A stretch of DNA of 64,000 nt from Bacteroidia bacterium (GTDB lineage Bacteria; Bacteroidota; Bacteroidia; NS11-12g; UBA955): positions 324,853 through 388,852 of the forward strand of contig JAMNXP010000001.1 of NCBI GenBank assembly GCA_023653095.1, in the 5' to 3' direction. Of the stretch, positions 2,698 through 42,829 are shown piece by piece. The notes beneath the pieces are model-generated. The model did no database searches and was not told where the DNA came from. It was given only the letters and a program-made list of their open reading frames with translations. The translations under genes were made by a program, and so were the position numbers. The stretch's first letter is position 1. The number at the start of each line of letters is the position of its first letter.

Positions 2698-5157
2698 TTG
2701 CAGCGTTTAGATGCCAAAGTGAAGATATTCTCTCTATTAGCGGTTGTATTTCTTTCGCTGCCTGTTTATTCTCAGTCGAATATCTACAAAGCTAAAGTTG
2801 TAGGTTGTACAAATTGTTCCCTGATTAAAATTATTGACTCTGAAGGCGATATTTTAGCTTCTGCTGATTCTATTGGAAGATTCGAGTTTGATTTACCTTA
2901 TGAACCCTTTCTATACTTTGGTAGATTTGGTAATTCAAAAGAAAAATTATTCGGAAAGTACGCCAGAAAAAGTTCGCTCAGTGATTCAATTACTATGGGT
3001 ATTGGGTTGGATTTAATTGGACAAGTAGAAGTAAATGTTGAAGGTTCTACCCCGTTCATGGATGAGATTAAAATACGTGAATTATCCCTAAACGCAGGGG
3101 TTGGATCCGGTGTAGAGAATTTAATCAAAACATTAGGTGGTGTTAGTAGTAATAATGAACTTTCATCGCAATTCTCCGTTAGAGGCGGAAACTTTGATGA
3201 AAATCTAATTTATGTCAATGATATTGAAATTTACAGACCTCAACTAATTCAAAATGGACAACAAGAAGGCCTGAGTTTCATCAATCCGCAGTTGGTAGAT
3301 AAAATCAAATTTTCCGCTGGGGGATTTGAATCGCAATACGGTGATAAAATGAGTTCGGTATTGGATGTGCAGTATATCAAGCCTGACTCAACGCGCGCTT
3401 CAGTTTCTTTAGGTACGATGATCAATAGCTTCACCGTTGAAGGTTCATCAAAAAAGATATCTGGATTACTATCGATTCGACATTTCACAAATTCACTGTT
3501 GACGGGAACCTTAAACACAAAAGGTACCTATTCCATGAATTTTGCAGATGTACAGTCATTTGTGAAATGGGATATTTCCAGAAATTGGTCATTGGATTTC
3601 TTAGGTAATATTGCTGGCAACGCTTTTCAGTTGATTCCTGAAAGCAAAACCACTGAATTTGGAACCATTCAGAGTGCGTATCAATTAAATGTATTTATGT
3701 TTGGCCAAGAGAACCTAAATTACAACTATTCTCTGGGTGCGCTAACAATGAATTATCGTCCTAATTTGAGGCAGAGCTTCAAATGGATTGCGAGTGCTAC
3801 AGCCATAAACGAAGAAGAGCATTTTGATATTCAAGGGGCCTATAATTTATCTGAATTAGATCGTGATTTCGGTTCATCTAATTTAGGAAAACCATTAAAA
3901 ACCCTAGGGTATGGGTATTATCTAGATCACGGTAGAAACCAAATGCAAAGCCGAATTTTCAATTTTTCACATCTCGGAAATTTCGGAAAGGTTAATGCGC
4001 GCACTCAAACCAAATATGGCATTAGATTGAACAAAGAGTTCATTGTAGATAGGTTCTATGAATGGCTTTATATGGATAGCGCTGATTACAATTTAGCACC
4101 ATGGTCATTTGCAAAAGACACAATCATTCTCGATGACATTACGAGATCCAATAATAGCTTGACTTCTACTAGAATCAACGGATTCATTCAAGTTAAGCAT
4201 TTTATAGATAGAGGTAAGAAATTATCATTGAACGCAGGTTTTAGAGCTTCATGGTGGTCAGTCAACCAGGAATTATTGTTGATGCCAAGAATATCTTTAT
4301 TTTATGAGCCCAACAAATTAGTAAAATATGAATCCAAAGATTCAAGTAAAAAACTCCCTGTAACCTACAGGTTTTCATTTGGAGCATATCATCAACCGCC
4401 CTTTTACAGGGAAATTAGAAGTTTGAGCGGCACATTAAATCCAAACACTAAAGCTCAAAAATCATTTCATTGGGTATTGGGAATGGATCGAGTTGTTACG
4501 TTGTGGAATCGCAGGTTCAAATATACCAGTGAAGCTTATTACAAACACCTTAGTGATTTGATACCCTATTATTACGATAATATCAGAATCAGATATTTTG
4601 CTGAGAACACATCTACAGGTTATGCTGCGGGATTTGACAATCGTTTATACGGGCAATTCAATAAGGGATTGGAAAGTTGGTTTACATTGAGCTTGCTACA
4701 AAGCAAGGAGAGAATTACTTACACCGATGCGAATGGGAATGCAGTAACTTCCGATTGGTTGAGAAGACCAACAGATAGACGTGCTAATTTTGCTGTTATT
4801 TTCCAAGATAGATTAAAACAAAATCCGAGTATAAGAGTCAATTTAAGTATGGTCATTGGAACAAACATTCCTTATTATTTAGATGGAATGGCTCGATATT
4901 CAAGCACACCGAGCATTGTACCACCCTACAGAAGGGTTGATATTGGATTTAGTAAGACTTTCAGGGAACTAGGTTCTAAACCTACAAAATTCAGTTTCAT
5001 CAAGCAATCTTGGCTATCGATTGACATTTTCAATTTACTTGACATCAACAATGTCATAGCATACAGTTGGGTAAAAGACTTAGAAAACAATCGATATGGC
5101 GTACCTGAGTATTTGACTGGACGCAGATTGAATGTGAGGTTGTTTATAGGGTTTTAG
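2698..5157 (+). CDS. TonB-dependent receptor-like outer membrane protein with an N-terminal carboxypeptidase-regulatory-like domain
   Basis: Signal peptide KIFSLLAVVFLSLPVYSQ. Plug-like segment FSVRGGNFDENLIYVNDIEIYRP. A long Gly/Tyr/Asn-rich barrel region ends in a terminal aromatic residue (LFIGF). The true start may be the GTG at 2719. Confidence 0.75.
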   Translation: MQRLDAKVKIFSLLAVVFLSLPVYSQSNIYKAKVVGCTNCSLIKIIDSEGDILASADSIGRFEFDLPYEPFLYFGRFGNSKEKLFGKYARKSSLSDSITMGIGLDLIGQVEVNVEGSTPFMDEIKIRELSLNAGVGSGVENLIKTLGGVSSNNELSSQFSVRGGNFDENLIYVNDIEIYRPQLIQNGQQEGLSFINPQLVDKIKFSAGGFESQYGDKMSSVLDVQYIKPDSTRASVSLGTMINSFTVEGSSKKISGLLSIRHFTNSLLTGTLNTKGTYSMNFADVQSFVKWDISRNWSLDFLGNIAGNAFQLIPESKTTEFGTIQSAYQLNVFMFGQENLNYNYSLGALTMNYRPNLRQSFKWIASATAINEEEHFDIQGAYNLSELDRDFGSSNLGKPLKTLGYGYYLDHGRNQMQSRIFNFSHLGNFGKVNARTQTKYGIRLNKEFIVDRFYEWLYMDSADYNLAPWSFAKDTIILDDITRSNNSLTSTRINGFIQVKHFIDRGKKLSLNAGFRASWWSVNQELLLMPRISLFYEPNKLVKYESKDSSKKLPVTYRFSFGAYHQPPFYREIRSLSGTLNPNTKAQKSFHWVLGMDRVVTLWNRRFKYTSEAYYKHLSDLIPYYYDNIRIRYFAENTSTGYAAGFDNRLYGQFNKGLESWFTLSLLQSKERITYTDANGNAVTSDWLRRPTDRRANFAVIFQDRLKQNPSIRVNLSMVIGTNIPYYLDGMARYSSTPSIVPPYRRVDIGFSKTFRELGSKPTKFSFIKQSWLSIDIFNLLDINNVIAYSWVKDLENNRYGVPEYLTGRRLNVRLFIGF

Positions 5158-5301: not shown

Positions 5302-8300
5302 TTAATTCGCTTCTGGGTCACCAGGGGCTGGTGCGATTTTAGATTTACAATCTTTCAACTGGGTTTGAAGAGATGAAACTTCAGATTTCAATCTAGTGAT
5401 TTCAGCGTTGTTTTTCTTGATGATTTCACCCAATTTGCCCATATCATCATCCATTTGAATAATTTGAGCTTTTAGCTGTTCGTATTCATCTGTATGCTTA
5501 GCCTTTTCCTGATTACACTGATTTAAAGATGCTTGAATTTGAGCTTTAGCATTGTCACAATCATCTAATTTGGATTTCAAAGTTTGAATTTCAGAGTTCT
5601 TTGAAGCTAATTGTTTTTGTAAATCCGCAATTTGTGCTTCTAATTGAGCATTATTATTAGATGAAGATGCAGTTGCTTGAATTGCCGCTTTTTCATCGTT
5701 GCATTTCTTTAATTCGGCTTGCAAAGCAGAAACTTGGGCTAGTGCTGAAGTTGTTGATTTCTTCGCTTCGGCGAGTTGCGCTTCGAGAGAGGCAATTTTG
5801 GCGTTTAAGGCAGTTACGTCTGAAGAAGATTTCTTCGCTTCAGCGAGTTGCGCTTCGAGAGTGGCAATTTTAACTTTGTAGGGACTGCAATCTTCACCCG
5901 ATGCTGGCAATGGGGTGTTATTGATTTTGTCAGAAAGTGCTTTTTTCTCTGCTGTTAATTGCGCGACCTGTTTTTTTAGTGCCTCGTTTTCGGCAGTTAG
6001 TTGAGCATTTTGGGTTTTGATTGGCGTGCAATCTTCAGAAGCAGATATTTTACTGCTAGCGGCAGTTAATTTTTCTTGACAAATTTTATTTTCAGACTCA
6101 AGATTCTTGATCTTTAGCTCTAAAGCTGCTTTTTCAGATTTCAATAACGCCACCTGCCTGTCACACTCATTGATTTTATTGATTAAATCTGTATTGGCTT
6201 TGGTTGCATCAATTTGTGAGCCTGACTTAGTTTTTTCAAGGGCTAAATCTGATTCACATTTCTTCTTTTGGTTCTCCAAAAGGTTGATGCGATCACCTAA
6301 AGTTGAATTTTGAGATTTTAATGCTTCAATTTGAGCTTTATTTCTTAGGGATTCATTTTCGAGGGCTAACTTTTCATTTTTCAACGTAGCTATTTCTAAC
6401 TTCAATACAGAAGTCTCAGTACAACATTTCTTGGCTTCATTCAATTGGGTTTGAAGAGCGGTTTTCTCTGCAATGCAATCCGAAAGCAATTTATCTGAAA
6501 GTCCAGAAGAGGTTGCCTTTATCTGGTCTTTAAGATTAACGATTTCAATGTCTGCTTTTTCTTTTTGTCCTTTCCAAACAAGTATTTCGGCTTGGGCCCT
6601 ATCATTTGCTTCTTGGAGTTTCTTTTTCTCTTCGTCGCATTTCTTTTCAGTTGCTGCTATTTGAGCTTTCACTCGTCCTAATTCTTCGTAGCTATTCTTC
6701 AAGTCTGCTTTGGCTTTTTCAACATCAATTTGAGCTTGAGTTAGCTGTTTTTTGCATTCATCGCAATTATTTGTAGGTGAAGGAATTGGAGAATTTTTCA
6801 GTTTTTTTAGCTCCTCTTCTTTGGCTTTTATATCTGCTAAAATTTGTGCTTCGCGTTTCTTCCATTCAATAGCATCAGCTTTGAATTTATCTAATTCTTT
6901 TTGAATGTTGTCTTTTTCTAGAGCAATTTGAGCTTTCGATTTTTCGCAATTTGCTTTGTCCTGCTGTAATTTGTCGTTCTCTTTTTTAAGTTTATCTGCT
7001 TCGGCGGAAATTTTAGCTACTTCCGGATTAACCTTATTTCTTTCGGTTACAACGGTGGTATCGTTAATGGTCTTTTTAACCACTATTTTAACCGTATCAT
7101 ATTGGTAGGTAGTGTCGTATTCGGTTTCTCTTTGAGTGAAAGAGTACCAATCACGTCTGTTGTAGCACCCTCCTATTTTTGATCTAAATCCAAAATAGAA
7201 ACTTGCACCGGTATAATTATTGTTTGCAACGTAATTACTCAATCCATACAGATTATCAGAACCGATGGTAACTGGACCCATTCTCACGTAAGCACCCACT
7301 TGTTGTTTTGTGTAATCGTGTGACAAAGTCAACGGAAATCCATATTCTAAATTCTCAGATTGGAATCTCGGAACTACGCTCAAGTATGAAGCACGTCTAA
7401 GTCCCACGGAATTCCACTGTCTTAAACTATGAGTCCAATATGCACCGAGATGCCATCCCCCGAAAAAGCGTTTATCAAACTGCACATTAAAGGCAACCGG
7501 TGAGTAACTCAAGAATTCATATTCTTCGTTGGCGCCCAAATCACCAAACAATCGATTATGGAGATCATCCAATTTATTGTCGCCCTGAGTGTATTGACCG
7601 TTCTGAATGATTAGCGGATCAATTTTCCAAACTTGATTACCGGTTGAAAGGATTTCGCTTGCACGTCCCCAATAAGAAATAAAGCCCAAATCAGTGATGC
7701 TAGCGCCCCATTTCCAAGAATATTGAAGACTTTTTTCGCGATCACACATAGAGTTGCTTAAGCGCTTCATTCCTGCATTGGGACGATATTCATACATTAC
7801 CCCTACATCCATACCTGCACCAGCACCTTCTACAATGTCAAATTTCCCACCAAAAGGATTAATGAGGGTTCTCATGTTTCCCGCTGAAGTAAGCAAACGA
7901 GCGTTCATCTGATTGATGGTTAGTTGCGTGGGACTATTGATCGTAAAAGAAATATCATCGGCCCCAAGGTGACCAACTCCCATTCCTAGTAACAATTTGG
8001 ATGTTAATCCCCATCTCCAAGAATGTTGTTTTGAAGTATTATTGAAACCAGAGAAGGTCATATACCATTCTTGATATCTCTCTGTATTCATTGAGAAATG
8101 GTTCTGATTGATGGTTTGTCCAACTTTGTTATTTACTTGTGGCATACCATAACGCATGATTCCGCCCAGATCGGCGTCTAATCCGTTGATTGAAAAACCA
8201 GAAACAGCTTTCATACCAAATCCCATAGCTCCAAAAGATCCCAAGGGAAAGAAAATGGACGGTCCCCAAACTTCGTTCAGGTAATTCAGATTCCAATTGT

Positions 8301-8622
8301 CTTTTCCTAAATTGGTTGGTAGCCAATCTTGGTTAAATGCTAAGGTTCCGTTTGTGTTGACTAATTCTTCAGGATAATTGCCGTTTGCCCATTGCCCTAG
8401 ACGAAACGGAGCATTGTATGACATGAAGTTATTCTCAGCATTCACTGAACCACCCCACCAGTTGATGTAAAGGCGATTTCCCGGGTTGGTTCTAGAAAGA
8501 GCCGGATTCAAGGAGAAGGAATAGGGACTGTTAAAGTCTCCAACCATTAATCCAAGTGGATGCTGAGCAATTGATGTTGACAGTATTCCGAAGGAAACAA
8601 GGGCCGCAAAAATCTTTTTCAT
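5302..8622 (-). CDS. outer-membrane-barrel-like domain (~500 aa) fused to a ~585 aa Cys-punctuated coiled coil; function unknown
   Basis: Signal peptide MKKIFAALVSFGILSTSIAQ. The N-terminal half is Gly/aromatic/Asn-rich with alternating-strand character (for example GASFYFGFRS). The C-terminal half is K/E/A/Q/L-rich heptad-like sequence through to the end (KIAPAPGDPEAN). It lies 49 nt downstream of the type-B CTD adhesin gene on the same strand. Confidence 0.8.
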   Translation of the reverse strand: MKKIFAALVSFGILSTSIAQHPLGLMVGDFNSPYSFSLNPALSRTNPGNRLYINWWGGSVNAENNFMSYNAPFRLGQWANGNYPEELVNTNGTLAFNQDWLPTNLGKDNWNLNYLNEVWGPSIFFPLGSFGAMGFGMKAVSGFSINGLDADLGGIMRYGMPQVNNKVGQTINQNHFSMNTERYQEWYMTFSGFNNTSKQHSWRWGLTSKLLLGMGVGHLGADDISFTINSPTQLTINQMNARLLTSAGNMRTLINPFGGKFDIVEGAGAGMDVGVMYEYRPNAGMKRLSNSMCDREKSLQYSWKWGASITDLGFISYWGRASEILSTGNQVWKIDPLIIQNGQYTQGDNKLDDLHNRLFGDLGANEEYEFLSYSPVAFNVQFDKRFFGGWHLGAYWTHSLRQWNSVGLRRASYLSVVPRFQSENLEYGFPLTLSHDYTKQQVGAYVRMGPVTIGSDNLYGLSNYVANNNYTGASFYFGFRSKIGGCYNRRDWYSFTQRETEYDTTYQYDTVKIVVKKTINDTTVVTERNKVNPEVAKISAEADKLKKENDKLQQDKANCEKSKAQIALEKDNIQKELDKFKADAIEWKKREAQILADIKAKEEELKKLKNSPIPSPTNNCDECKKQLTQAQIDVEKAKADLKNSYEELGRVKAQIAATEKKCDEEKKKLQEANDRAQAEILVWKGQKEKADIEIVNLKDQIKATSSGLSDKLLSDCIAEKTALQTQLNEAKKCCTETSVLKLEIATLKNEKLALENESLRNKAQIEALKSQNSTLGDRINLLENQKKKCESDLALEKTKSGSQIDATKANTDLINKINECDRQVALLKSEKAALELKIKNLESENKICQEKLTAASSKISASEDCTPIKTQNAQLTAENEALKKQVAQLTAEKKALSDKINNTPLPASGEDCSPYKVKIATLEAQLAEAKKSSSDVTALNAKIASLEAQLAEAKKSTTSALAQVSALQAELKKCNDEKAAIQATASSSNNNAQLEAQIADLQKQLASKNSEIQTLKSKLDDCDNAKAQIQASLNQCNQEKAKHTDEYEQLKAQIIQMDDDMGKLGEIIKKNNAEITRLKSEVSSLQTQLKDCKSKIAPAPGDPEAN
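5756..5871 (-). repeat. two 44-bp near-identical direct repeats with a 72-bp period inside the coiled-coil CDS
   Basis: 5756-5799 gatttcttcgcttcggcgagttgcgcttcgagagaggcaatttt versus 5828-5871 gatttcttcgcttcagcgagttgcgcttcgagagtggcaatttt (2 mismatches). They encode I-A-[ST]-LEAQLAEAKKS twice. Confidence 0.9.
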
Positions 8623-8671
8623 AGTTTAAACGAATTCACAAATTTATGTGAATCACAGCATAAACCATGCC

Positions 8672-8929
8672 TTAACGTATCACCTGAATGTAACCCTTGA
8701 ATTTTATATCTTGTTCAGTGTGTTTTAAATAGTAAAAATAAACCCCATTTTCAAGTTCTTTACCATTGGAGTCTGAGCCATTGAATGAGTTATCGTAGGG
8801 TGATTTTTTCAAGATTACAGCACCTTGACGGTCCATGATTGTCACTTCGTACTTTTCAAATTCAGGCAACATATCAATGCGCCAAGTTTGATTTAATGCA
8901 TCTCCGTTAGGGCTAATAATATTCGGTAA
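8672..8929 (-). other. type-B T9SS C-terminal sorting domain (gliding motility-associated CTD, TIGR04131-like)
   Basis: LPNIISPNGDALNQTWRIDML...YEVTIMDRQGAVILKK...NGSDSNGKELENGVYFYYLKH...FKGYIQVIR fits the PNGDG.ND / I.DR.G / G.Y.Y / G.V.LIR pattern of this family. Confidence 0.75.
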
Positions 8930-11900
8930 CTTAACACTGTAAGGATCTAACACAGTTATACAAACGGTATCTGTACCAATGCATCCATTCGCGGCTTTTC
9001 CATAAACTACATAACAAATAGAAGTTTGTGGCTCAGCCAATACAACATCACCAATTGAATCGCTCAAACCAATGAACGGCCTCCAAGAATATGATTGTGC
9101 ACCGTTAGCTGTTAAGAAAACTCCATATCCTTTGTAAATAGAGGTATCTGAATTCGTAGAAACACTGTATGAATTCACAGTTGTCACTATAGAGTCTTTG
9201 TCGCTGGTACAAAAACCGTCATTTTGAGTTAAGTAAAATACTTGTCGTAATAGTGTGTCTACTCTGGGTATTGGCGTAATATCTGTTCCTGAAGTATCAT
9301 CTAGAGATGAGTACCAATTGATGTTTGAACCACTAACTTTTAAAGAATGCGGTTGATTAAGACAAAGTGTTAAAGGTGAGACAAACGTTGGCTTAGACGG
9401 CAATTCTCTCACTTGAATCGTCATTTTACTCCTTGAAGACAAACAACCTAGTGGACTTAAATATTGGGCATACCTGATAATGGAATCACGTTTAGCCATA
9501 ATTTTATATTGCGATCCTGTATCTAATACCAATCCACTGGTGTCAGACCATTTAATGATAAATCCTGGAATGTGTTGCACAATTAAAGTTATTTCTTGTT
9601 TATCACATACTGTAGTATCTATAGAAATTGGTGGTTGTAAATTTTGATACCCAACTACGGCAGAGTCTTCGGAAATGCAGCCATCCCTACCTACAATTTG
9701 AACTTTATATTGACCTGTTAGTAATCCAAAAATGGAATCCCCAGTGGTATTATTTGACCAATTGAAAATATCTATCATTCTGTCTCCAGTGTAAGTTAAT
9801 TTTAGACTTCCATCACTGGTATTTATGCATCGGGCATCATATGAGGAAATGGTAGTGCTATCACCGATAATAATACCTTTTAATTTAATTGGAGTTAAAG
9901 GTCCTACACATCCGTTTTTGTTATTGAAAGCATAATATCCAGTAAACGAGTCTCCAATCTGACGATTAAACTTAAATGAATTGGTGTTTGTTTTTAATGC
10001 TGATTTGTTTTCATCGAACCAATCAGCAGAATAATTAACTGAATCAGCATTGAATAGTGTAAAAAGATTGTACGATAATGCACAGTATGCGGTGTCAATA
10101 ATCTGAGGTTGTGGACTGAAAATATTGGCTTTAACAATAACTGAATCAATCCTAGAACAACCTTTAACATCCGTAGCTGTAATAAAATTCAATCCTGATT
10201 TCAAATTCGAAACAGAATCTGATGTAGCTCCATTTGACCACTTCCAAGATTTGAAAGCATTTAAACCGTTGTATTTCACTTTTGCCCTTCCGTCAAACGA
10301 AGTTGAACAAGTAGCATTATAGGTGGATATATTTAATTTCAAAGGGGTAAAAGTGACTTTACACGTATCGTATTTCCAACAGGTATCTCCACGATAGGTA
10401 AATGTTACTTTAACCCAATATTCCCCGGAAGATTTTACTTTCAGGCTAGATTTGGTGGAGCCGTCATTCCACAAGTAACCAAAGGCCCCTTTGTAGAAGT
10501 TTGTATTTAATGTAATTGAATCGTCTTGGCACAAGATGGTGTCAGGACCAATTCCCAAGTTTTGTTTGGTGGTATTTTCGAAAATCCAATTTTTATTTCC
10601 TGAAACGTCTACACTGTTTGATCCAATTTTTTGTTGAACTGGTGACAACGCTAGTTGATCTCTCATTTCCACAAAATCAATCAAGGTAATTGTTGTGGAA
10701 TTAAATTTCAACGTATCTTCATTATTTACCAAATTAGATTGAATGGTGATGGGGAAACAAGAATTCCCTACAGCATCAAACAATTTATTGACGGTAAAAC
10801 TCTTTTGATTCTCAAATTTATAGATTCCTCCAGGGTTCAACTCTAGAGTGTCAAACCTTTGGTATCCAAGGAAATCGCATTCATTTTCATACTTTGCATA
10901 CCTAATGGTGGCATGTTTGATGTGATTCCTATTTTCTATATTAGGGTTTGCATCTGAGTATTGACCATACACTTTCTCTTTTGCATGGAGTTTTCCAATT
11001 TTTGCATAAGGAATACTCAATTCTTGAAGGTAACTTTCGAAGTACAATTCATTGAATTCTAAACTGTCCGTTGCTCTAAAAAAGTCAGTACCTTGGGGAT
11101 TGCTGCATTTATCAAGGAATGAAATTTTGTTGAATTTTACTCTCGGATAAGTAGACATATGATAAAACGCCTTTCTCCAATCTTGTCGTTTCATGGCTAA
11201 ATGAGATCGATCAGCAGATAAATAAAAGTTCTTTCCGTGAACTTCCCATCCGTAATCTGGAGGATTATTGGCTTCTACATAGCTTCCAACCATGTTCCAA
11301 TGTCTATCAGCTTCACCATACGAATAGTATTTTCTCATTCTTACATAATTCCCTTGAGTGATAAATGTTCCTGAAGTATGCATGATACCCCATTGATCTC
11401 TATCACCTATGACTTGCAAAGAATCATACAAACGCCAAGTGCCTGTTCCAACAATATTCAATCTTACAATTGGCTTAAAGTAGGGATAAATTGCATTTCC
11501 AGTATCAGTGGCTTCTAAATTCACAAAACCCTCGAATTTATAATCAACGTTGGGTCTAAGTCTTAAATCTCCAAAGATTTTCAATGTACTGGTGTATGGA
11601 CCTTTTAATATTGCCGGTCTCACGGTAAAATCCCAAGTCATGTTGTTGCAACTGGCATTTTCTACATCGATGTAAACTATTTCACCGTTCTTGCTGAATG
11701 AATTACCGTCGAAGATAACATTATCTAATTGACTAGGAATACAACCTGAAGGAGAGCCACCCGAAGTCAATGACCAATGATAGGGATTGCTCCACATACC
11801 TGAATCATTCACCCAATAATAGGTTCTTCCGGTTAAAAGAGAAATATTCCAATTCTTATTTCCTCCTCTATCTGAAGCGTTTTTTGCCATGTATTTGGTA

Positions 11901-14380
11901 GTACCCAAACCTTCGATATCTTGAAGAGCCAAATAATCACCGTGCGCAGTGTCCATTTTATATTCGAAAGAGGTTAATTCACCTTTTTCACTGGATGTAA
12001 GCGAAATCAGTCCTCTGCAATTTCCTTTTATACCTAAATATTTATTGACTGTTTGAGTATTTCCTTTTTGAAATTGGTTGGCTGAGCCAGGGTAAAAAAT
12101 CAGACTATCAAAAAGTGTATTACCATACATAGTTACATCTTTATGGTATCTAGCAGTATTGATTTTTGAACCTTGGGAATTCTGATAAAGCACCTTCTCA
12201 AAACAGTTTAACCTATTAACTACTGCCCTTTCAATAGAAAGTTCACCCACGTAACTTTTGAGATTTAACTCCCCAAATCCTGCGCTATCGCTGATTCTGA
12301 TCATATCCGTTCCTTGGGGATTTTGGACAAGATCCTGAAAACTTACCTTATTATATTTTACGTAAGGATATTTTGCAACATGGAAGAACACTTTTCTCCA
12401 ATCAGACCTAAAGATTTGAATGTGATAATTGGTAGAATCCATTTTGAATTTACTTCCCTCAACATACCACGCTGGCTCCCATGCGTCTCTTGAATACCAG
12501 TTTGATTGTCCCATTTTGATTTCACGAGAGCGATGACCTGTACTTACAAATTTCTTAGTATTAATTGGTCGTCCGCTGGTAACAAAAGTTCCAGATTTTA
12601 ATGTTAAAGCTTCGTAGTTTATTCCGTCATTAAAACCGAGAACGGTTAATGAATCAAACAATCCCACTCCACTAATGGCAGATTCACAGTCAATTTCGAG
12701 TCGAGAAAATGGAAAATTCGCAGTTCTTAAAGAATTCACAGCGGCTTCAAAATTGTTAATGATCCATCTACCTTTCATGTCGTTTTCAGGCTTAGAATAA
12801 AACAAGATGTTTCCCGTGGTTCTGAGCGTATTAGAATCCGTTGAATGGAATACACTGGTATTAGCAGTTGCTGCATAATTAATCTGAAAGCAAGTGTTTT
12901 CTCTAAGATCGAGAAACAAAGTATCTAAATTTGTTGTAAACGAATTTTTGTCAAAAATCACGTAGTCTATCGGCCCAGGGATGCAAGCTTGTCCGGCACC
13001 GCCGCTTGAAGTTGACCAATTGCTCGGATCTGACCATTTCCCTGTCTGTCCTACCCAGAATAGAAACTTTGCCGTTAAGTTGAACGTGCTACCCAATCCC
13101 GAAACAGTTGAAGTAGTGATGTGGTTAAAGGCTGTAACAGATGAAGAACCCGTGAATTTCAAATGATTTAATCGGCAATAATCGATATTTTGAGTAGAAG
13201 GAGTATTGATAATGAACTCCGCTTTAGTACCCGGAGTATTGCTTCTGATGTTTACATGTCTTCCACATGACCCCATCCAATCCAAGTGTTTATTGACCGT
13301 GATAATTTGTCCACCACCAAATTCATAGGTTGCACCACCCTTTAATGAAAGTGTATCTACGGTAAAACTTCCATCAATAAATGAAGAATTGCGCAATACA
13401 AATTTCCCAATTTTCGCAAAATTCAATCTCATATTATCTACGCGTTCGTGACAAATCAAGGTTTTAACATTGATTCCACTAAACTCAGCATCATTAACAG
13501 TACTCTTTATTTCAATTTTATTAAAACTAGTAGAATCGCTACAATTGAAATTGTCGCCAATCATATCTTTTGGATACCTATACTCAACTCTTAAATTGTA
13601 AAAAACCGATTTAGGACTTTGCACCATATGGAAAAAGTGTTTTCTCCAGTCTTTATACAATAAGTTGATCTGAGATATTCCAGCGTCTAGATGGAAGTTA
13701 TTGTCTTGCGCATACCACCCTCCTTCTCCATCAACCAAATTCACAATTGAACTTCCCAAAGTTAGTTTTCTCCAATTATTACCGGTAGAAATAAATGATC
13801 TTAGTTGTAATACCTTGTTATTTGATTTAAAATGACCGCTGTAAAGTACAAGTCCCCAACCATTTACATCTCCATATAATTTCAATGAATCTTGCAAAGT
13901 CCATTCGCCATTAAGTCCCTTAAATTCAAACTTCTGAATTTTAAAATTGGCAGTGGTGATTTTATTTCCGGTGGACGTTGCTTCGAAGGTGAAAAATCCA
14001 TCGAAAGCAAAATCCATATTTTTATCTAACTGCAAATCTCCATAAATACGGATGAAGTAGCTTTTATCGCTGCTGGTGAATTTGGGTTTATTCTTAACCC
14101 CATTCCAAATCAAACTCTTACAAACGGCATTTGAAACATTTAAATTCACCGATTCACCGGTTGATGAAAAAGAATTGGCATCAAAGAAAACATCATCTTG
14201 AAAAGTAGGAACTTGATTATGGTAGGTGTTTCCGCCTGATGTTGTAGCCCAATGGGTCAAATCTGACCAAGAACCACTACCACCAACCCAATAATAATTT
14301 GCAGCGGATAATTGGGAAGATGCCCAGATCAAAAGATTGAATACTAATAGCCCTTTCAATTTATTCAATGTTATCTTCAT
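8672..14380 (-). CDS. giant cell-surface adhesin-like protein with a type-B T9SS C-terminal domain (SprB-like cargo)
   Basis: An ATG at 14380 gives MKITLNKLKGLLVFNLLIWASSQLSA as signal peptide; the track starts at the TTG at 14395. It contains three ~410 aa modules, then Cys-framed SprB/Ig-like repeats (CSTSFDGRAKVKY...DVKGCSRIDSVIV; CINTSDGSLKLTY...GRDGCISEDSAVV), then the C-terminal sorting domain. Confidence 0.85.
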   Translation of the reverse strand: MKITLNKLKGLLVFNLLIWASSQLSAANYYWVGGSGSWSDLTHWATTSGGNTYHNQVPTFQDDVFFDANSFSSTGESVNLNVSNAVCKSLIWNGVKNKPKFTSSDKSYFIRIYGDLQLDKNMDFAFDGFFTFEATSTGNKITTANFKIQKFEFKGLNGEWTLQDSLKLYGDVNGWGLVLYSGHFKSNNKVLQLRSFISTGNNWRKLTLGSSIVNLVDGEGGWYAQDNNFHLDAGISQINLLYKDWRKHFFHMVQSPKSVFYNLRVEYRYPKDMIGDNFNCSDSTSFNKIEIKSTVNDAEFSGINVKTLICHERVDNMRLNFAKIGKFVLRNSSFIDGSFTVDTLSLKGGATYEFGGGQIITVNKHLDWMGSCGRHVNIRSNTPGTKAEFIINTPSTQNIDYCRLNHLKFTGSSSVTAFNHITTSTVSGLGSTFNLTAKFLFWVGQTGKWSDPSNWSTSSGGAGQACIPGPIDYVIFDKNSFTTNLDTLFLDLRENTCFQINYAATANTSVFHSTDSNTLRTTGNILFYSKPENDMKGRWIINNFEAAVNSLRTANFPFSRLEIDCESAISGVGLFDSLTVLGFNDGINYEALTLKSGTFVTSGRPINTKKFVSTGHRSREIKMGQSNWYSRDAWEPAWYVEGSKFKMDSTNYHIQIFRSDWRKVFFHVAKYPYVKYNKVSFQDLVQNPQGTDMIRISDSAGFGELNLKSYVGELSIERAVVNRLNCFEKVLYQNSQGSKINTARYHKDVTMYGNTLFDSLIFYPGSANQFQKGNTQTVNKYLGIKGNCRGLISLTSSEKGELTSFEYKMDTAHGDYLALQDIEGLGTTKYMAKNASDRGGNKNWNISLLTGRTYYWVNDSGMWSNPYHWSLTSGGSPSGCIPSQLDNVIFDGNSFSKNGEIVYIDVENASCNNMTWDFTVRPAILKGPYTSTLKIFGDLRLRPNVDYKFEGFVNLEATDTGNAIYPYFKPIVRLNIVGTGTWRLYDSLQVIGDRDQWGIMHTSGTFITQGNYVRMRKYYSYGEADRHWNMVGSYVEANNPPDYGWEVHGKNFYLSADRSHLAMKRQDWRKAFYHMSTYPRVKFNKISFLDKCSNPQGTDFFRATDSLEFNELYFESYLQELSIPYAKIGKLHAKEKVYGQYSDANPNIENRNHIKHATIRYAKYENECDFLGYQRFDTLELNPGGIYKFENQKSFTVNKLFDAVGNSCFPITIQSNLVNNEDTLKFNSTTITLIDFVEMRDQLALSPVQQKIGSNSVDVSGNKNWIFENTTKQNLGIGPDTILCQDDSITLNTNFYKGAFGYLWNDGSTKSSLKVKSSGEYWVKVTFTYRGDTCWKYDTCKVTFTPLKLNISTYNATCSTSFDGRAKVKYNGLNAFKSWKWSNGATSDSVSNLKSGLNFITATDVKGCSRIDSVIVKANIFSPQPQIIDTAYCALSYNLFTLFNADSVNYSADWFDENKSALKTNTNSFKFNRQIGDSFTGYYAFNNKNGCVGPLTPIKLKGIIIGDSTTISSYDARCINTSDGSLKLTYTGDRMIDIFNWSNNTTGDSIFGLLTGQYKVQIVGRDGCISEDSAVVGYQNLQPPISIDTTVCDKQEITLIVQHIPGFIIKWSDTSGLVLDTGSQYKIMAKRDSIIRYAQYLSPLGCLSSRSKMTIQVRELPSKPTFVSPLTLCLNQPHSLKVSGSNINWYSSLDDTSGTDITPIPRVDTLLRQVFYLTQNDGFCTSDKDSIVTTVNSYSVSTNSDTSIYKGYGVFLTANGAQSYSWRPFIGLSDSIGDVVLAEPQTSICYVVYGKAANGCIGTDTVCITVLDPYSVKLPNIISPNGDALNQTWRIDMLPEFEKYEVTIMDRQGAVILKKSPYDNSFNGSDSNGKELENGVYFYYLKHTEQDIKFKGYIQVIR
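10575..14302 (-). repeat. three tandem ~411-414 aa protein modules within the giant adhesin (divergent at DNA level)
   Basis: Module heads are NYYWVGGSGSWSDLTHWATTSGG (Trp codon at 14288-14290), FLFWVGQTGKWSDPSNWSTSSGG (13055-13057) and TYYWVNDSGMWSNPYHWSLTSGG (11813-11815). Each also has a DWRK.F[FY]H motif and an N[FL]..DG/NSFS segment. Boundaries are approximate. Confidence 0.7.
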
Positions 14381-14509
14381 GTTTACTTTTTTCAATATTA
14401 ATCAATCTCTTAACGACATCCAAAATGGCTTCGTGAATGGTCGGTATATTTGATTCTTTCAACGAAGATTCATTTATTAAGTGCTCATTTTTCGTAGATT
14501 CGCGGTTTT

Positions 14510-22963: not shown

Positions 22964-23896
22964 TTAATCCAATACGAAGGTATTTTTTTGTCTAAGTAAT
23001 CCTCTTGTCCAGAGTTCAGTTGTGTATTTACCCTTTTTCAATTTACCTGCAAGAGTACCAGAATTTGGGAACTTCCACTTTACTTTTTGAAGAGCACCAT
23101 CAAAGGTTATGTTATCAAGCATGGTTGTTACTTGTGACTTGTCTTGCAATTTCTTGTTTGTCACGCTCAATACACCCCCATCTGGATCTAGTAAACGAAT
23201 GGTTACTTGTTCTTCCACTACGGTTGTAACCATTGGATTTTCGAGAACATCAAAAGTGATGGTGAATTTGTCTACTTTTTTCGCTTTATTGGTTAGCTCA
23301 CGTTTCTCGCTAAAGGCTGAAGTAATAAGAGTTCCAAATTGCGGCATGGCCCCTTTTTCTAATCTCTCCTTAAGTTCTACGTTTTCTACGCTCAAAGCTT
23401 CTTTTTCGTTCTTTGCTACTTCAACATCCGTAATTAACTGATTTCTTTCAACCACGATGGTATCAATCTGACCAGTAAGGTGCTTAATTCTTTGCTTAGC
23501 TTCTTCAAGTTGTTTGCGAATCCCTGTTAAATTAACCTTCGAATTATCTTTGGTTGATACATTAATATCTCCACCACCAACATTGGTAATTTGAGTCAAT
23601 TGTCTGCGCAAACGGTTAATTTCACGGTAAGCAGCAAGTATCTTAGGATTGTTATCTCCTTCTAATTCAGTTACTTTGTTTACCAATGTGGTATTTTCTG
23701 CCTGTAAACTCGCAACAACCGCATTCAACGAATCTTCCATTTTCAATAGTTCCGCTTGCATTGAATCTCTCATTGCTACTAATTCTAATTGCTTTTTTGC
23801 AACTGAGTCTTGGTTGTTGTAATAGAGAAATGCATTTGTTCCAGCTGACAACAATAAGAGTATCAACAAGATAATAACTACACCTGTTCTTTTCAT
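22964..23896 (-). CDS. membrane-anchored coiled-coil protein with a C-terminal beta-rich domain; function unknown
   Basis: N-terminal TM (GVVIILLILLLLSAG), ~170 aa of heptad-like sequence, then a ~110 aa beta-like tail. It is the last gene of the lon-led co-directional array. Confidence 0.6.
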   Translation of the reverse strand: MKRTGVVIILLILLLLSAGTNAFLYYNNQDSVAKKQLELVAMRDSMQAELLKMEDSLNAVVASLQAENTTLVNKVTELEGDNNPKILAAYREINRLRRQLTQITNVGGGDINVSTKDNSKVNLTGIRKQLEEAKQRIKHLTGQIDTIVVERNQLITDVEVAKNEKEALSVENVELKERLEKGAMPQFGTLITSAFSEKRELTNKAKKVDKFTITFDVLENPMVTTVVEEQVTIRLLDPDGGVLSVTNKKLQDKSQVTTMLDNITFDGALQKVKWKFPNSGTLAGKLKKGKYTTELWTRGLLRQKNTFVLD

Positions 23897-23935
23897 AGTT
23901 TATTTAATCTTACAATATTAAGGAATTCAACCGAC

Positions 23936-25267
23936 TTATTGAGCACGATGGATATAATCCTCAACTGATTGGAGGTTTGAACCTATGTATAATATTCGGT
24001 TTTTACGATCTAACAAGATAAACTGAGGCATCTTTTGAATGCTCAATTTTGAAATGGTTCTTGAATCGGCAATGAGTTGTTTCACTTTAAGTGAAAACCT
24101 TGAATTATAACCCGTTATATATCGAATACTGCCTCCAAAATTCAATAATAAGGCGTCAAATTTGGGATTTGAAGCATTTTTTCTCAGGATTTGATGCAGT
24201 GCAGATGAATCTTTTTCAAAATCTGAATTAATGGCACTCCAAACATAAATCAATTTAACTTCTGCTTTTTTATTAAATACCTTCGTAATCCTTCTTCTTT
24301 TTAATTTGCGCTGTAAATCAACCTTTTTAGTGCTTTTGGGTGTGATAAATGCTTTAACTTTTGGTAGTTTTTTACCAATTGAAATTCTATTTTTCGATCC
24401 ACCTAATTCTCTAAATTCCAATTGATACTCACCTCCTGATTTAAGAATATTGAATTCATAATCCCTACCCTTCCAGGGAACACGATTGGCCTTTGATAGG
24501 GGCAAAGAGTTGTCTGCATTAAATATACTATCACTTTCTGATAGGAGAATCAAATCATTCTCATCGGTAAACGATCCATTGAAATCTTTGTCTAATACAC
24601 CCACAAGAGCACTTTCTAATGAATCTCCAATTGATGTATATAAAACTGCTTTTCTATTGGCCTTGAGTGAATAATTACTTCCCAAATAATGTCTTGGACC
24701 AATCAGTTCCTTCATGGCAGTATCATTCATCTGAGCAAATTTCCGGAACTGAGGCACTGGAAACCATTGCAAATTGTAGCCTCCTCCAAATGAATCTAAC
24801 TGAAGAAACCACTTTCCTGCACCGATAGATTTCAAATTTGGTTTAGGGTCATTTGCAAAATCACCGTCATCGTTAAAATCAACCCAAATATCTAATTTAT
24901 GGTTGGTTCTTTGGAGCAAGTAATCCGGGATAATAAAAGCCAAAAATTCTTTCTTTTTTGATTTTATCTCAAAATTCCGATATAAATAACCGTAGGCCAC
25001 TGATTTCCATTGATAGGAAGATTCATCATTGGGAAGGATTACTTTAGTAAATGCTGTTTTTACCTTAAAAATATCAGCGCCTGTTAAATCTACTGGCTCA
25101 TACATGATAGCGTCTTGCAATTCAAACACGGGTATATGTCCCATAGATTGAAAAGAAGATTTTTCATAGCCAATTTTGTTTAAAGTCTTTTCAGTTGGTG
25201 ATTGGGCACCGAGAGATAAAAAAGAAAACATCCCCCAGATAAACACGTATTTCAAGGGGTGTTTCAT
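23936..25267 (-). CDS. secreted hypothetical protein with a C-terminal thioredoxin-fold-like domain lacking CxxC
   Basis: Signal peptide MKHPLKYVFIWGMFSFLSLGAQS. The C-terminal ~120 aa resemble the TlpA/ResA layout (KLIYVWSAINSDF ... MPQFILLDRKNRILYIG), but the active-site position reads SAINS rather than WCxxC. Confidence 0.6.
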   Translation of the reverse strand: MKHPLKYVFIWGMFSFLSLGAQSPTEKTLNKIGYEKSSFQSMGHIPVFELQDAIMYEPVDLTGADIFKVKTAFTKVILPNDESSYQWKSVAYGYLYRNFEIKSKKKEFLAFIIPDYLLQRTNHKLDIWVDFNDDGDFANDPKPNLKSIGAGKWFLQLDSFGGGYNLQWFPVPQFRKFAQMNDTAMKELIGPRHYLGSNYSLKANRKAVLYTSIGDSLESALVGVLDKDFNGSFTDENDLILLSESDSIFNADNSLPLSKANRVPWKGRDYEFNILKSGGEYQLEFRELGGSKNRISIGKKLPKVKAFITPKSTKKVDLQRKLKRRRITKVFNKKAEVKLIYVWSAINSDFEKDSSALHQILRKNASNPKFDALLLNFGGSIRYITGYNSRFSLKVKQLIADSRTISKLSIQKMPQFILLDRKNRILYIGSNLQSVEDYIHRAQ

Positions 25268-25436: not shown

Positions 25437-27899
25437 TTAATTTTTATTCAGAATTATGGGATTCTTCACTTTCTCAGGAGTTAGGGCTAAATCTAAGACC
25501 TCAAACATATTGTGCACATAGTGGAAAGTCATGCCTTTCAGGTAGTTTTGATCAATGTCTAGAATGTCTTTTTCATTCTGCAAGCAGAGAATAATTTCTT
25601 TGATTCCGGCGCGTTTAGCGGCTAAAATTTTCTCTTTGATACCGCCTACGGGTAATACCTTCCCTCTCAAAGTTATTTCACCTGTCATTGCTAGGTGAGA
25701 TTTCACCTTCCGTTGAGTAAACAACGAAGCCAAAGATGTTAACACCGTAACCCCTGCTGATGGGCCGTCTTTCGGTATAGAACCAGCAGGAAAATGCACG
25801 TGTATTCCCCATTTCTCAAATACTTCTGGAGAAATTTCTAAATAATCAGCGTGTGATTTGAGGAAGGTATGAGCCAAGCTAACGCTTTCTTTCATAACAT
25901 CTCCGAGTTGACCTGTTACTTTTAATTCAGGTTTACCTGGGATCAAAGTGCTTTCAACGAATAGAACAGAACCTCCTAATGGACTCCAAGCCAAACCAGT
26001 AACTACACCTGCAGTGTGATTATTTTCATACATTTCAGGTTCCATTTTCTCCGCACCTAAAATTTGTTCAACTTCTTTCGGGCCGATGTTTACTTTAATT
26101 TCTTCATCAGAAGATGCAATGGATTTTGCAGTTGATCTTGCCAAAGCTGCAATTTTCTTATCTAAACCACGTACTCCGCTTTCTCTGGTATAATTCTCTA
26201 TGATGTAGGAAATCCCTGCATCACTTACTTTGAATTGTTTACCGGTTAATCCGTGAGCTTTTCTCTGCTTGGGAACCAAATACTTCTTCCCTATTTGCAG
26301 CTTTTCTTCCATCGAATAACCCGATACCTCAATAATTTCCATTCGGTCAAGTAAGGCAGGCTGAATGGAGTCTAAAGAATTTGCTGTTGCTACGAAAAGT
26401 ACTTTACTGAGGTCATAGTCCATCTCCAGATAGTTATCATAGAAATTGGTGTTTTGCTCGGGATCAAGCACTTCTAGTAAGGCAGAACTTGGATCTCCCC
26501 TGAAATCACGTCCTAATTTATCGATTTCATCTAACACAAATACGGGATTTGAGCTTTGAACTTTTTTTAAGTTTTGCACTATTCGACCTGGCATAGCACC
26601 AATGTAGGTTTTTCTGTGACCACGAATTTCAGACTCGTCATGCAAACCCCCTAAACTCATTCTAATGTATTTACGTCCTAAAGCCCTAGAGATACTTTTA
26701 CCTAAAGATGTTTTACCCACACCTGGAGGTCCATAGAGGCAAATGATGGGGCTTTTCATGTCGCCTTTAAGTTTCAAAACGGCGAGATATTCAAGGATGC
26801 GATTTTTGACTTTTTGCAAACCGAAATGGTCTTCATCAAACACTTTTGCAGCATGTTTTAGATCAAAGTTATCATGGGTATAATCTTCCCAAGGAAGATC
26901 TAAAAGCAATTGTACGTAGTTGAGTCCAACGGAATAATCGGGAGAAGCTGGATTTACCCTTTGCAAGCGATCAAGTTCTTTTTCAAAGTGTTCACGAACC
27001 TCTGGTTTCCACGACTTAAAGAGTCCTTTTTCACGAAGATTTTGAATCTCTTTATCTGGAGAGTCGCCCCCTAACTCTTCTTGGATGGCACGAATTTGCT
27101 GATGAAGGAAATACTCTCGTTGTTGTTTATCAATGTCGGTCCTAACCTTGTTTTGAATTTGATCTTTCAATTCCAACATTTGTAGTTCCTTAATCACGAA
27201 CTCCAATACTTTTTGGGCTCTTTCCTTGGGATTAGTAGATTCGAGGATACTTTGTTTTTCAGGAACGGTGATGTTTAAATTAGAGGCCACAAAATGAATC
27301 AAGAAATTACTTGAGTCAATATTACTGATGGCAATAGAGGCTTCACTCGGCAAATTTGGAGACAGATTGATAATTCTATTGGATATATCTTTTACCGAGG
27401 AAATGATGGCTTTGTACTCTTTGTCATCTTTGATTTTATCGTCAGCCACAGGAAAAACTTTTGCTCTTAGATAGGGCTCATGATGAACAATTTCGCCAAT
27501 TCGAAGTCTTCTTTTACCTTGTATAATTACCGTTGTAGTTCCATCGGGCATTCTCATTAGTTTGATGATCTTGGCCACTACCCCAATTTCATATAAATCA
27601 GAAGCACCAGGATCTTCAACTTCGGCATTCTTTTGGGCAACAACGGCGATGGTTTTATCGGCCTTGTTTGCATCTTTTACTAATTTGATACTCTTATCTC
27701 TTCCAACGGTAATAGGAAATATTACTCCAGGAAAAAGCACCGTATTTTTTATAGCCAAAACAGGAAGTTCTTCTGGAACCTCCATTTTATTGCTCTCGTC
27801 TTCTTCTTGTTTCGAAAATAAAGGCAAGAATTCAGGTGAATCGTCTACATTGTCTTCATCTCCGTTGAAGTGAATGAAGCTATTTTTCTTTCCAAACAT
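25437..27899 (-). CDS. lon: ATP-dependent Lon protease (LonA)
   Basis: Walker [10 protein letters not shown], catalytic PKDGPSAG, and the LON N-domain. The probable start is MFGKKNSF at 27899; the track's extension to 27956 is rejected. Confidence 0.95.
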
Positions 27900-27914
27900 G
27901 TTTGTTGCGAAGAT

Positions 27915-27929
27915 ACAAGACGCGTGCCA
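27915..27929 (-). promoter_or_regulatory. sigma-54-type -24/-12 element (TGGCAC-N5-TTGT) upstream of lon
   Basis: The minus strand reads gtgTGGCACgcgtcTTGTatcttcgcaacaaacATG. It matches TGGCACG-N4-TTGC except for C->T in the -12 GC. I could find no TAnnTTTG box in the lon upstream region. Confidence 0.3.
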
Positions 27930-27981
27930 CACATTCAAAACCCGACATTCTGTCACCCGTGTAATTTTTTTTTCACCAATG

Positions 27982-28011
27982 TTGAATTTAACTTGGATTT
28001 ATCGACATTTG
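27982..28011 (+). promoter_or_regulatory. Bacteroidota sigma-A-type promoter for the lipoprotein gene
   Basis: TTG (27982-27984), N19, then gACATTTG (28004-28011; one mismatch to TAnnTTTG). It ends 20 nt before the ATG at 28032. Confidence 0.3.
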
Positions 28012-28031
28012 TAAAAACCAAAAAAAGAAAC

Positions 28032-28868
28032 ATGAAATTTAAATTATTTACATTAGCGTTGGCATTACCTGTAATGTCATTTCTAGCGTCTTGCGGTGGC
28101 GAGGACGAAGCAGCCAAGCCTACCATTACATTAGAGTCTGGCGGAATTACTGCTAATAAAGATGTTGAGGCTGGTTCAAAAGTTTCATTCAAAATCAAAG
28201 CTGTTTCAGCTTCTGGAACTTTATCAGGTGTAACCATCATCGCTACTTACGGCACTAAATCAGTTACAGTACTTGATACAGCAACTGGAGCGGCTGACAT
28301 GATCTTTACCAAAACGATTGATGCCATAGGATCTCCTGGAGACGATGTCAAATATACATTCACTGCAAAAGATGGCAATGGTGCTAGCAGTTCAGTAGCA
28401 GTTACCTTGTCGGTTATACCTATCATGGCTTCATTGGATGGACAAAGTGGATTCCAAATTTACAATGCAAATTCTAGCGGATTAACCACATCATTTGATT
28501 TGGCTAAAGGTCAACCTAATCCTGGAGCTTTACCCCTTAAAGATATCATTGATGGAACTACTTCTGGTTCTGCACAATGGTCTAAATCTTGGGCTTCTGC
28601 AAATGGTTCTACTTTCTGTAAAGTGAGTGCGAATGATTGGGTAAACGGTAATTCAACCGATTACTTATTCAACCTTTGGAAAGCGAACAAAGACAAGATG
28701 ACAGCAACCTACACCAACTTAACCAAAGATGATGTGATTTTGGTTCGTTCTGGTCAAGTTCTAGATTTCAATTTGTTTATCCTTAAGATTACAGGCGTAA
28801 CTGATTTGCCAGCAGTGGGTAATAACAACGATTTCGCCCAATTTGATTTCAAAGGCGTTATTTTGTAA
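28032..28868 (+). CDS. lipoprotein of unknown function
   Basis: MKFKLFTLALALPVMSFLASCGG contains a lipobox, followed by an Ig-like Ser/Thr/Ala-rich N-domain. It is a monocistronic unit with its own terminator. The track's N-terminal extension (27870) overlaps lon and is rejected. Confidence 0.7.
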   Translation: MKFKLFTLALALPVMSFLASCGGEDEAAKPTITLESGGITANKDVEAGSKVSFKIKAVSASGTLSGVTIIATYGTKSVTVLDTATGAADMIFTKTIDAIGSPGDDVKYTFTAKDGNGASSSVAVTLSVIPIMASLDGQSGFQIYNANSSGLTTSFDLAKGQPNPGALPLKDIIDGTTSGSAQWSKSWASANGSTFCKVSANDWVNGNSTDYLFNLWKANKDKMTATYTNLTKDDVILVRSGQVLDFNLFILKITGVTDLPAVGNNNDFAQFDFKGVIL

Positions 28869-41019: not shown

Positions 41020-41023
41020 ATAA

Positions 41024-42787: not shown

Positions 42788-42829
42788 TTCTTCTTAGATT
42801 ATTTTAATTTAATATAAGGTTGGAATTTA

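Follow-up and report, generated by a model that had tools for sequence, protein, structure and literature searches.

The window analysed here, a stretch of 64,000 nucleotides of a Bacteroidia bacterium (contig JAMNXP010000001.1, positions 324,853 to 388,852, assembly GCA_023653095.1), carries on its minus strand an open reading frame (5302-8622) that encodes a DUF5723 protein of 1106 amino acids (aa) with a very long, cysteine-containing tail. The domain order of this DUF5723 coiled-coil protein is a signal peptide, a DUF5723 outer-membrane β-barrel, a short β-rich linker and a 564-residue helical tail. A preliminary description of the DNA had read the gene product as a helical heptad coiled coil on a barrel-like protein, and this was borne out by the predicted helices, the DUF5723 match and a modelled barrel.

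Domains of the protein and of its tail

All coordinates of the gene are on the minus strand. The signal peptide (residues 1-19, 8566-8622; MKKIFAALVSFGILSTSIA / QHPLGL) was read from the sequence; a signal peptidase I site predicted by eye after residue 19 would leave a mature N-terminal Gln, and the “AQ” junction is kept in the orthologues. The β-barrel domain (residues 20-485, 7168-8565) was assigned by its Pfam match to DUF5723 (PF18990; 87.3 bits against a cut-off of 26.8, E = 2.2e-24), which covered residues 52-456 and profile positions 10-376 of 376, and by an AlphaFold2 (AF2) model. The AF2 model, computed from a six-sequence alignment, was a β-barrel with a predicted local distance difference test (pLDDT) of 58.8 and a predicted template modelling score (pTM) of 0.63. 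Its best Foldseek matches in the PDB were TodX, FadL and TbuX, with PorV also matched, all of them weak (E ~5e-5, template modelling score 0.3-0.4). The protein had no match to Pfam Toluene_X. The likeness to FadL and TodX consists of weak fold matches of a model with pLDDT 59, and a sequence search of the PDB with the barrel profile returned no related solved structure. The two papers found to mention DUF5723 treat proteins of this kind as components of the outer membrane or of vesicles.

The linker (residues 486-532, 7027-7167), delimited by a ten-orthologue alignment and AF2, opened with C486 (7165-7167) and continued with short β-strand repeats of the form (R/K)DT(I/V), for which AF2 placed strands with low confidence at 500-507, 510-519 and 522-530. 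Residues D509, D521 and T522, like C486, were invariant across the alignment. One possibility is that the linker serves as a dimerisation neck. Two cysteines lie outside the tail: C293 (7744-7746), located in a barrel loop, is at least 90% conserved, and the invariant C486 stands right behind the last barrel strand. A disulfide between these two within one chain may fix the point at which the tail leaves the barrel.

Counted from N529 (NKVNPEVAKISAEADKLKKEN) to the C-terminus, the tail comprises 578 residues (window 5302-7038), within a few residues of the approximately 585 aa from about position 7030 given in the preliminary description. It is composed mainly of K (90), A (76), L (61), E (59), Q (44), S (43) and N (39). 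The tail was predicted to be helical rather than disordered, and the coiled-coil rod (residues 533-1096, 5335-7026) was delimited by AF2 secondary structure together with a heptad register. The AF2 model of residues 484-1106, which was run as a monomer only (pTM 0.27), contained six helices at 533-610, 620-728, 738-851, 866-902, 913-985 and 991-1096, with lengths of 37-114 residues, or about 5.5-17 nm apiece and about 84 nm when summed. They were separated by Pro/Gly/Ser hinges of 5-14 residues at 611-619, 729-737, 852-865, 903-912 and 986-990, and the two Pro-rich breaks noticed earlier, NSPIPSPTNNC and NNTPLPASGEDC, were both present. The early argument that a single helix of this size would exceed the width of the periplasm holds for the summed length, but the tail is divided by its hinges into six helices. 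The protein closes with a flexible segment, APAPGDPEAN (residues 1097-1106, 5305-5334, read from the sequence), whose last residue is Asn, followed by the stop codon (5302-5304).

Searches with the tail gave no relative of known structure. Foldseek with the AF2 monomer against the PDB found nothing significant (best E = 0.098) and returned only generic helical hairpins, a result that says nothing on the oligomeric state since it is generic; a PDB sequence search with the tail likewise found nothing meaningful. Named coiled-coil families (SMC, Rad50, crescentin) scored far under their cut-offs (SMC_prok_B with 54.9 against 567 bits, Rod_CreS with 19.4 against 100 bits), and such SMC- and crescentin-type matches are compositional and do not indicate membership. 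No tandem DNA repeats of note were found in the tail-coding region, so the repeated LEAQLAEAKK peptides of the tail do not come from recent DNA duplication.

The heptad register (abcdefg) was assigned with our own simple Viterbi scheme, in which Cys was scored as zero at every position, so that the register was not biased by Cys. In this register, the “a” positions contained Ile (25%), Leu (21%), Lys (13%), Val (8%) and Asn (8%), and the “d” positions contained Leu (37%), Ala (14%) and Cys (12%), while Lys accounted for 31% of the “e” positions and Glu and Gln for 31% and 20% of the “g” positions.

The family and the placement of the tail cysteines

A word-indexed homologue search found only 8 relatives, and an exhaustive profile search with the N-terminal domain against 1.84 billion representatives found 2024 DUF5723 proteins. 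Most of these are lone barrels of about 480-520 aa. The architecture of barrel, linker and tail was shared by the best-scoring clusters, about 35 in number (900-1360 aa), and the DUF5723 coiled-coil subfamily was defined here by a barrel, the (R/K)DT(I/V) linker and a heptad tail that is 400 aa or longer and carries its Cys on “a” or “d”; the protein of the window fits this definition. A second extended group (700-960 aa; P0049, P0079, P0123, P0147), ending in “GRQKNRRVE...”, was assigned by Pfam to DUF5723 with thrombospondin type-3 (TSP_3) repeats and OmpA (PF00691). The coiled-coil subfamily spans lineages with only about 23% identity in the N-terminal domain, and the tails of orthologues range over 390-776 residues, which corresponds to rods of 58-115 nm. 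To see whether the tail module is joined to other N-terminal domains, the last 250 aa were used as a query; this gave one fragment only, the word index being saturated by low-complexity candidates. The gene was located at 45 loci (one genome per species, queried with 10 closer sequences), all of them in metagenome-assembled genomes (MAGs), mostly from lakes and rivers and labelled Bacteroidia, Flavobacteriales or Bacteroidota.

The tail contains 16 Cys residues, whose codons lie between 5347 and 6948. They form 14 sites when the CDEC and CC pairs are counted singly, and the count, the number of sites and the local contexts given earlier (NCEKSK, NCDECKK, KCDEEKK and others) were all found. The spacings are 1-62 residues, and 14-62 between sites; the “25-60” of the preliminary description was approximately right, with a lower end that proved shorter. 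Ten of the residues (C559, C623, C733, C789, C820, C848, C974, C1022, C1036 and C1092) occupy “d” positions, five (C620, C662, C716, C865 and C912) occupy “a” positions, and C734 is at an “e” position. Thus 15 of 16 Cys were placed in the heptad core (binomial p = 8e-8), a number equalled by none of 100,000 random placements. Four orthologues with 20-31% tail identity had 53 of their 59 Cys at “a” or “d”, regardless of the penalty set for register shifts, and in 29 family representatives (pairwise at most 50% identical) 379 of 433 Cys (88%) were at these positions, with 314 (73%) at “d” and 65 at “a” (p ~1e-145). Cys occupied 12% of all “d” positions of these representatives, and its frequency was 2.4-2.8% in the tails against 0.27% in the N-terminal domains of the family. 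The spacing between consecutive Cys, taken modulo 7, was mostly 0 or 3. The core placement of the tail Cys is real and statistically robust.

Conservation of the Cys among homologues, whose absence would have refuted the preliminary description by its own terms, was found. Core-position Cys were present in every member examined, and the last of them (C1092, in the context “LKxC”) was at least 90% conserved. The variable Cys columns changed singly among close orthologues, with Leu, Ile, Val or Ala as the alternatives. Cys were also concentrated near the ends of the segments: 54% of them, compared with 32% of all core positions, are at most 8 residues away from a hinge or a break in the register (p = 9e-12). 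The helix-start motif (S/G)EDC(S/T)P(Y/I)KxK(I)AxLEAQL, present in two copies at C865 and C912 (5887-6030), places its Cys as the first core (“a”) residue past a hinge; it was recognized by its recurrence in relatives, where the form (G/S)EDC(S/T)PYKxKIAxLEAQL occurs family-wide (P0003, P0005, P0006, P0007) and the ten-orthologue consensus is “EDCxPxKxK”.

Pairing of the chains and rival explanations

The orientation of the chains was addressed by the charges flanking the core and by the distribution of Cys within it. The protein had 25 attractive and 5 repulsive g(i)-e(i+5) charge pairs, and the 29 representatives had 715 attractive against 144 repulsive pairs, whereas control offsets of -9, -2, +12, +19 and +26 gave ratios of 0.8-1.2. 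In parallel coiled coils disulfides are formed at juxtaposed d-d' positions, while antiparallel ones need a-d' pairs (PMC6146289). The d:a ratio of the Cys, about 5:1 (314:65), thus fits parallel chains and does not fit antiparallel ones, for which about 1:1 is expected. The number of Cys was odd in 17 of the 29 tails, and mirror-symmetric Cys pairs showed no excess over random core placement in any of the 15 orthologues tested. An antiparallel dimer was rejected on the missing mirror symmetry, the d:a ratio, the odd Cys counts and the single gains and losses of Cys sites. In a parallel in-register homodimer each Cys stands opposite its own copy, so that any number and spacing of Cys is satisfied, which explains the odd counts, the asymmetry and the single gains and losses. 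A dimeric state is suggested by the β-branched residues, Asn and Lys at “a” with Leu at “d”, and by the single Cys per layer, since in a trimer one thiol of each layer would have no partner. Two tails probably pair, in parallel and in register, into a homodimer whose d-d' disulfides are homotypic.

The explanation that we favour, with modest confidence, as a whole is a disulfide-laddered, parallel, periplasmic coiled-coil dimer on an outer-membrane barrel, for which we infer the periplasmic location, the dimeric state, the formation of disulfides and the function. The protein would be exported by Sec and its signal peptide cleaved, after which the DUF5723 barrel, with its FadL/PorV-like fold, would insert in the outer membrane and leave the C-terminal 620 residues hanging in the periplasm. 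Two chains would then zip up in parallel and in register into a coiled coil of two strands, with hinges between its six helical segments and a contour of about 84 nm. The core Cys, mostly at “d”, would each face their own copy in the partner, and the oxidation machinery of the oxidising periplasm would join them by homotypic d-d' and a-a' disulfides. This would build a covalent ladder of about 14 rungs, many of which adjoin hinges and would clamp the register there. An oxidising compartment, and cross-linking between chains as one of three options, had been suggested at the outset; the former is a reasonable implication and the latter is the option favoured here. What results would be a segmented rod, dimeric through covalent bonds, that is held in the outer membrane by two barrels and has a flexible Pro/Gly end carrying the conserved terminal Asn. 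It might act as a strut or tether of the envelope, either beneath the outer membrane or reaching from there to the cell wall, or as a sub-membrane skeleton. Such a structural role is speculative. The C-terminus of DUF5723 proteins, and by homology the coiled-coil tail, is placed in the periplasm by the OmpA_C domain of the paralogues, a periplasmic domain found at the same C-terminal position; a periplasmic rather than a surface-exposed tail is most likely on this homology. Since that domain binds peptidoglycan, a structural envelope role is the most likely one. A length of about 84 nm is too great for the rod to stand perpendicular in the periplasm, so it would have to be tilted, or to follow the inner face of the outer membrane or of the cell wall.

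The cysteines could instead staple the tail to itself, as the preliminary description had suggested: the chain would fold back at its Pro/Gly hinges, and antiparallel neighbouring helices would be joined by intrachain disulfides into a compact bundle of hairpins, a fold that removes the problem of length. The hinges do separate six helices, the AF2 monomer does fold back and weakly resembles helical-hairpin proteins (all E > 0.09), and a few Cys are placed roughly as mirror images about a hinge (C620/C623 with C848, and C848 with C865). However, fold-back of a monomer is a known artefact of AF2, the a-d' pairing of such hairpins predicts an a:d ratio of about 1:1 instead of the observed 65:314, and the odd Cys number in 17 of 29 tails, the mirror symmetry at random level in 15 of 15 orthologues, the gain and loss of Cys sites one at a time and the 5:1 g(i)-e(i+5) complementarity, a parallel signature, all speak against it, which makes stapled hairpins very unlikely. 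The parallel signature is shared by trimers and tetramers, so that a parallel coiled coil of higher order, or a mesh in which CxxC and CC link more than two chains or neighbouring rods, has to be weighed as well. The doublets C620/C623 and C733/C734 are like the interchain rings of COMP, matrilin and fibrinogen, and the periplasmic coiled coils of OmpM, SlpA and Lpp are trimers. With one Cys per layer, however, a trimer would be left with one unpaired thiol in each layer, and an “a” position rich in Ile, Val, Asn and Lys combined with a “d” position of Leu and few β-branched residues is the classical signature of dimers; an assembly of higher order is thus unlikely, though most conceivable at the CxxC and CC sites.

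The Cys might also stay reduced and form no ladder, serving simply as small hydrophobic residues of the core or as sensors of redox state or of metals. They are exchanged for Leu, Ile, Val and Ala as any core residue would be, and their oxidation is a prediction only. Yet Cys takes up 12% of the “d” positions, about 9-fold more than in the barrels of the same proteins (2.4% vs 0.27%), and is kept across lineages about 23% identical in the N-terminal domain; the juxtaposed d-d' thiols of an exported protein would be expected to oxidise, and the bias to segment ends suggests a clamp, so we regard reduced Cys as unlikely. A surface-exposed stalk, another of the early suggestions, or an adhesin would be exported through the barrel or beside it in the manner of an inverse autotransporter, or would be a PorP/SprF-like anchor for the cargo encoded by the adjacent gene. 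That gene, 49 bp from the DUF5723 gene on its upstream side, encodes a 1907-aa protein with CHU_C, the type-B C-terminal domain (CTD) of the type 9 secretion system (T9SS), and genes for type-B cargo usually precede a PorP/SprF-like gene. The core genes of the T9SS (porP, gldKLMN) lie within the window, and the barrel model is weakly PorV-like. Against this, no more than the three closest relatives have the CHU_C gene, and at about 40 other loci the DUF5723 gene stands alone and divergent from sppA. Pfam assigns DUF5723 and not PorP_SprF to the protein, while the genuine PorP of the window is recognised, and the peptidoglycan-binding OmpA domain at the same C-terminal position of the paralogues points to the periplasm. 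A CTD or an autotransporter domain is missing from the protein, and a stalk at the surface is accordingly a highly improbable reading. Domain searches agreed with these assignments: OmpA_C (PF00691) was not found in the protein with Pfam, nor was an S-layer homology (SLH) domain with Pfam and NCBIfam. Autotransporter, intimin and YadA domains had no Pfam or NCBIfam match, the fold matches being FadL-like instead, and no T9SS CTD (TIGR04183, TIGR04131, PF13585) was present, the C-terminus being the Asn-ended segment given above. A PorP/SprF role (PF11751) was rejected, as there was no match to the protein and the adjacency to CHU_C was confined to 3 of 45 loci.

Several points weigh against the disulfide-laddered dimer. 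Its support is wholly computational, and the model of the tail is an AF2 monomer with a pTM of 0.27 that folds back and has no significant structural match. The register comes from a home-made scoring scheme and not from a validated predictor. The choice of a dimer over a trimer or tetramer follows from rules of core composition and from the logic of Cys pairing, and buried reduced Cys would yield the same statistics as disulfides. The CxxC (620/623) and CC (733/734) sites misfit a simple model with one rung per site. A rod of 84 nm is much longer than the periplasm is wide, and the tails vary between 390 and 776 residues, so that a role as a perpendicular spacer is unlikely. No recognisable peptidoglycan- or partner-binding domain was found at the distal end with Pfam and NCBIfam, and the syntenic partners (sppA, efflux genes, rpe, folP, fumC) offer no functional clue.

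Gene surroundings, known systems and significance

Comparison of the window neighbours with the 45 loci by tblastn showed strict synteny and a single-copy orthologue. On one side the gene is divergent from tolC, tetR and sppA; on the other it converges with the gene for an 819-aa Plug-domain protein, followed by rpe, folP and fumC. The 819-aa protein (2698-5157, plus strand), the most constant neighbour over all loci, matches the Plug domain of TonB-dependent receptors only weakly (E = 8e-7) and matches no barrel family. The 1907-aa type-B cargo (8672-14395, minus strand; CHU_C, Ig_7) has about three long internal repeats starting with “YYWVG..G.WSD..HW”, and no PorP/SprF-like gene adjoins its gene. 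Of the 45 loci, only those of the three closest relatives have the cargo gene between the DUF5723 gene and sppA; it is therefore a recent lineage-specific insertion and not a partner. Within the 49-bp gap that follows this upstream gene, TAAATTTG (8639-8646, minus strand, read from the sequence), 17-24 nt upstream of the ATG, matches TAnnTTTG, the published -7 promoter consensus of Bacteroidetes, and is compatible with a promoter of the DUF5723 gene's own. Scans for sigma-70 promoters and terminators gave background level only.

Farther along the minus strand the T9SS core operon is complete (39943-46359), which indicates that the organism has a type 9 secretion or gliding apparatus; it comprises genes for PorP/SprF (45178-46359, PF11751 match), a GldK-like protein with an FGE-sulfatase domain (43533-45050), GldL (42830-43486), GldM (41024-42787) and GldN (39943-41019). 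Four open reading frames of 310-443 aa (22964-25267, 27870-28868, 34910-36001) had no Pfam match at E <= 1e-5. Clusters of the family are all named hypothetical or DUF5723, one being misnamed “Zn-ribbon protein”. Some MAG records of the locus are titled “uncultured Rhizobium sp.”, “uncultured Bifidobacterium sp.”, “Chitinophaga pinensis” or “Chryseobacterium gleum”, which are evidently placeholder or erroneous labels. In almost every complete orthologue the C-terminus is rich in P, G, T and S and closes with Asn (GGN, PN or EAN). This end may be a docking or attachment signal, although it fits no known sorting motif. More distant members of the family have a low-complexity C-terminus rich in S, G, N and T, followed by RR.

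Among known systems, the closest structural precedent is PLVAP (plasmalemma vesicle-associated protein), the crystal structure of whose extracellular CC1 segment is a parallel two-stranded coiled coil with 5 symmetric interchain disulfides in 89 residues (PMC10083539). It is likewise a membrane-anchored, extracytoplasmic parallel dimer, in which homotypic interface disulfides offset non-canonical heptads and give a long stiff fibre (PMC10083539). The features of this structural class, core Cys at “d” or “a” and g-e' complementarity, are present in the DUF5723 protein, in which the interchain disulfides are a prediction from sequence. PLVAP differs in being eukaryotic, with a single-pass type II anchor, no sequence homology and a role in the capillary diaphragm, and its approximately 390 aa contain 9 Cys, compared with 16 in the 578 aa of the DUF5723 tail. 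The lambda spanins Rz and Rz1 are periplasmic homodimers whose chains are joined homotypically by one or two disulfides (PMC5295617; Berry et al. 2013), but they have only 1-2 Cys per chain and about 150 aa, with Rz in the inner membrane and Rz1 a lipoprotein, act in lysis and membrane fusion, and are not homologous.

The outer-membrane tethers OmpM of Negativicutes, SlpA of Deinococcus and Ompalpha of Thermotoga (PMC10628300, PMC9388160) resemble the DUF5723 protein, as it is predicted here, in combining a barrel and a long periplasmic coiled-coil stalk on one polypeptide and in functioning in envelope architecture. Their stalk is N-terminal and trimeric, with a cell-wall-binding SLH domain at its end and no Cys ladder. 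The order of domains is reversed in the DUF5723 protein, whose stalk is C-terminal, probably dimeric and Cys-laddered, and about 3-5 times longer, without an SLH or peptidoglycan-binding domain. The DUF5723-TSP3-OmpA paralogues have a homologous N-terminal barrel and a periplasmic C-terminal extension too, but theirs consists of TSP type-3 repeats and an OmpA_C domain of about 100 aa, in place of which the present type has a coiled coil of 400-800 aa and no OmpA. Lpp is also a structural, outer-membrane-anchored periplasmic coiled coil, and its distal C-terminal residue is functional; it is a lipid-anchored trimer of 58 residues with no Cys in the coil, whose C-terminal Lys is attached to peptidoglycan, while the DUF5723 protein ends in Asn.

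The kind of element, an outer-membrane-anchored periplasmic coiled coil, is thus known, and what is new is the predicted multi-rung Cys ladder in an uncharacterised family. Literature searches for other coiled coils with a multi-rung homotypic disulfide ladder found only the eukaryotic PLVAP and the one- or two-rung phage spanins. As far as these searches reach, an envelope element of this predicted kind is undescribed in bacteria, and the ladder would be the first multi-rung one among them. If true, it could provide protein engineering with a natural template for very stable, register-locked rods.

The stabilisation and spacing of the outer membrane in Bacteroidota are poorly understood, and according to the literature on tethering systems these bacteria have no Braun's lipoprotein. 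A disulfide-laddered coiled coil anchored by a barrel would, if true, be a new architectural solution, in a family that is confined to uncultured lineages and annotated as hypothetical or DUF5723. We put forward tentatively, and with more doubt than the ladder itself, that the family is a new bacterial envelope skeleton, in which pairs of barrels are joined by a periplasmic rod of 60-115 nm with about 10-20 homotypic disulfides. This prokaryotic counterpart of the PLVAP fibre might extend beneath the outer membrane or pass through the cell wall, with the terminal Asn tail perhaps as its attachment or docking signal, and might replace or complement tethers of the OmpA and Lpp types in an uncultured freshwater clade of Bacteroidota.

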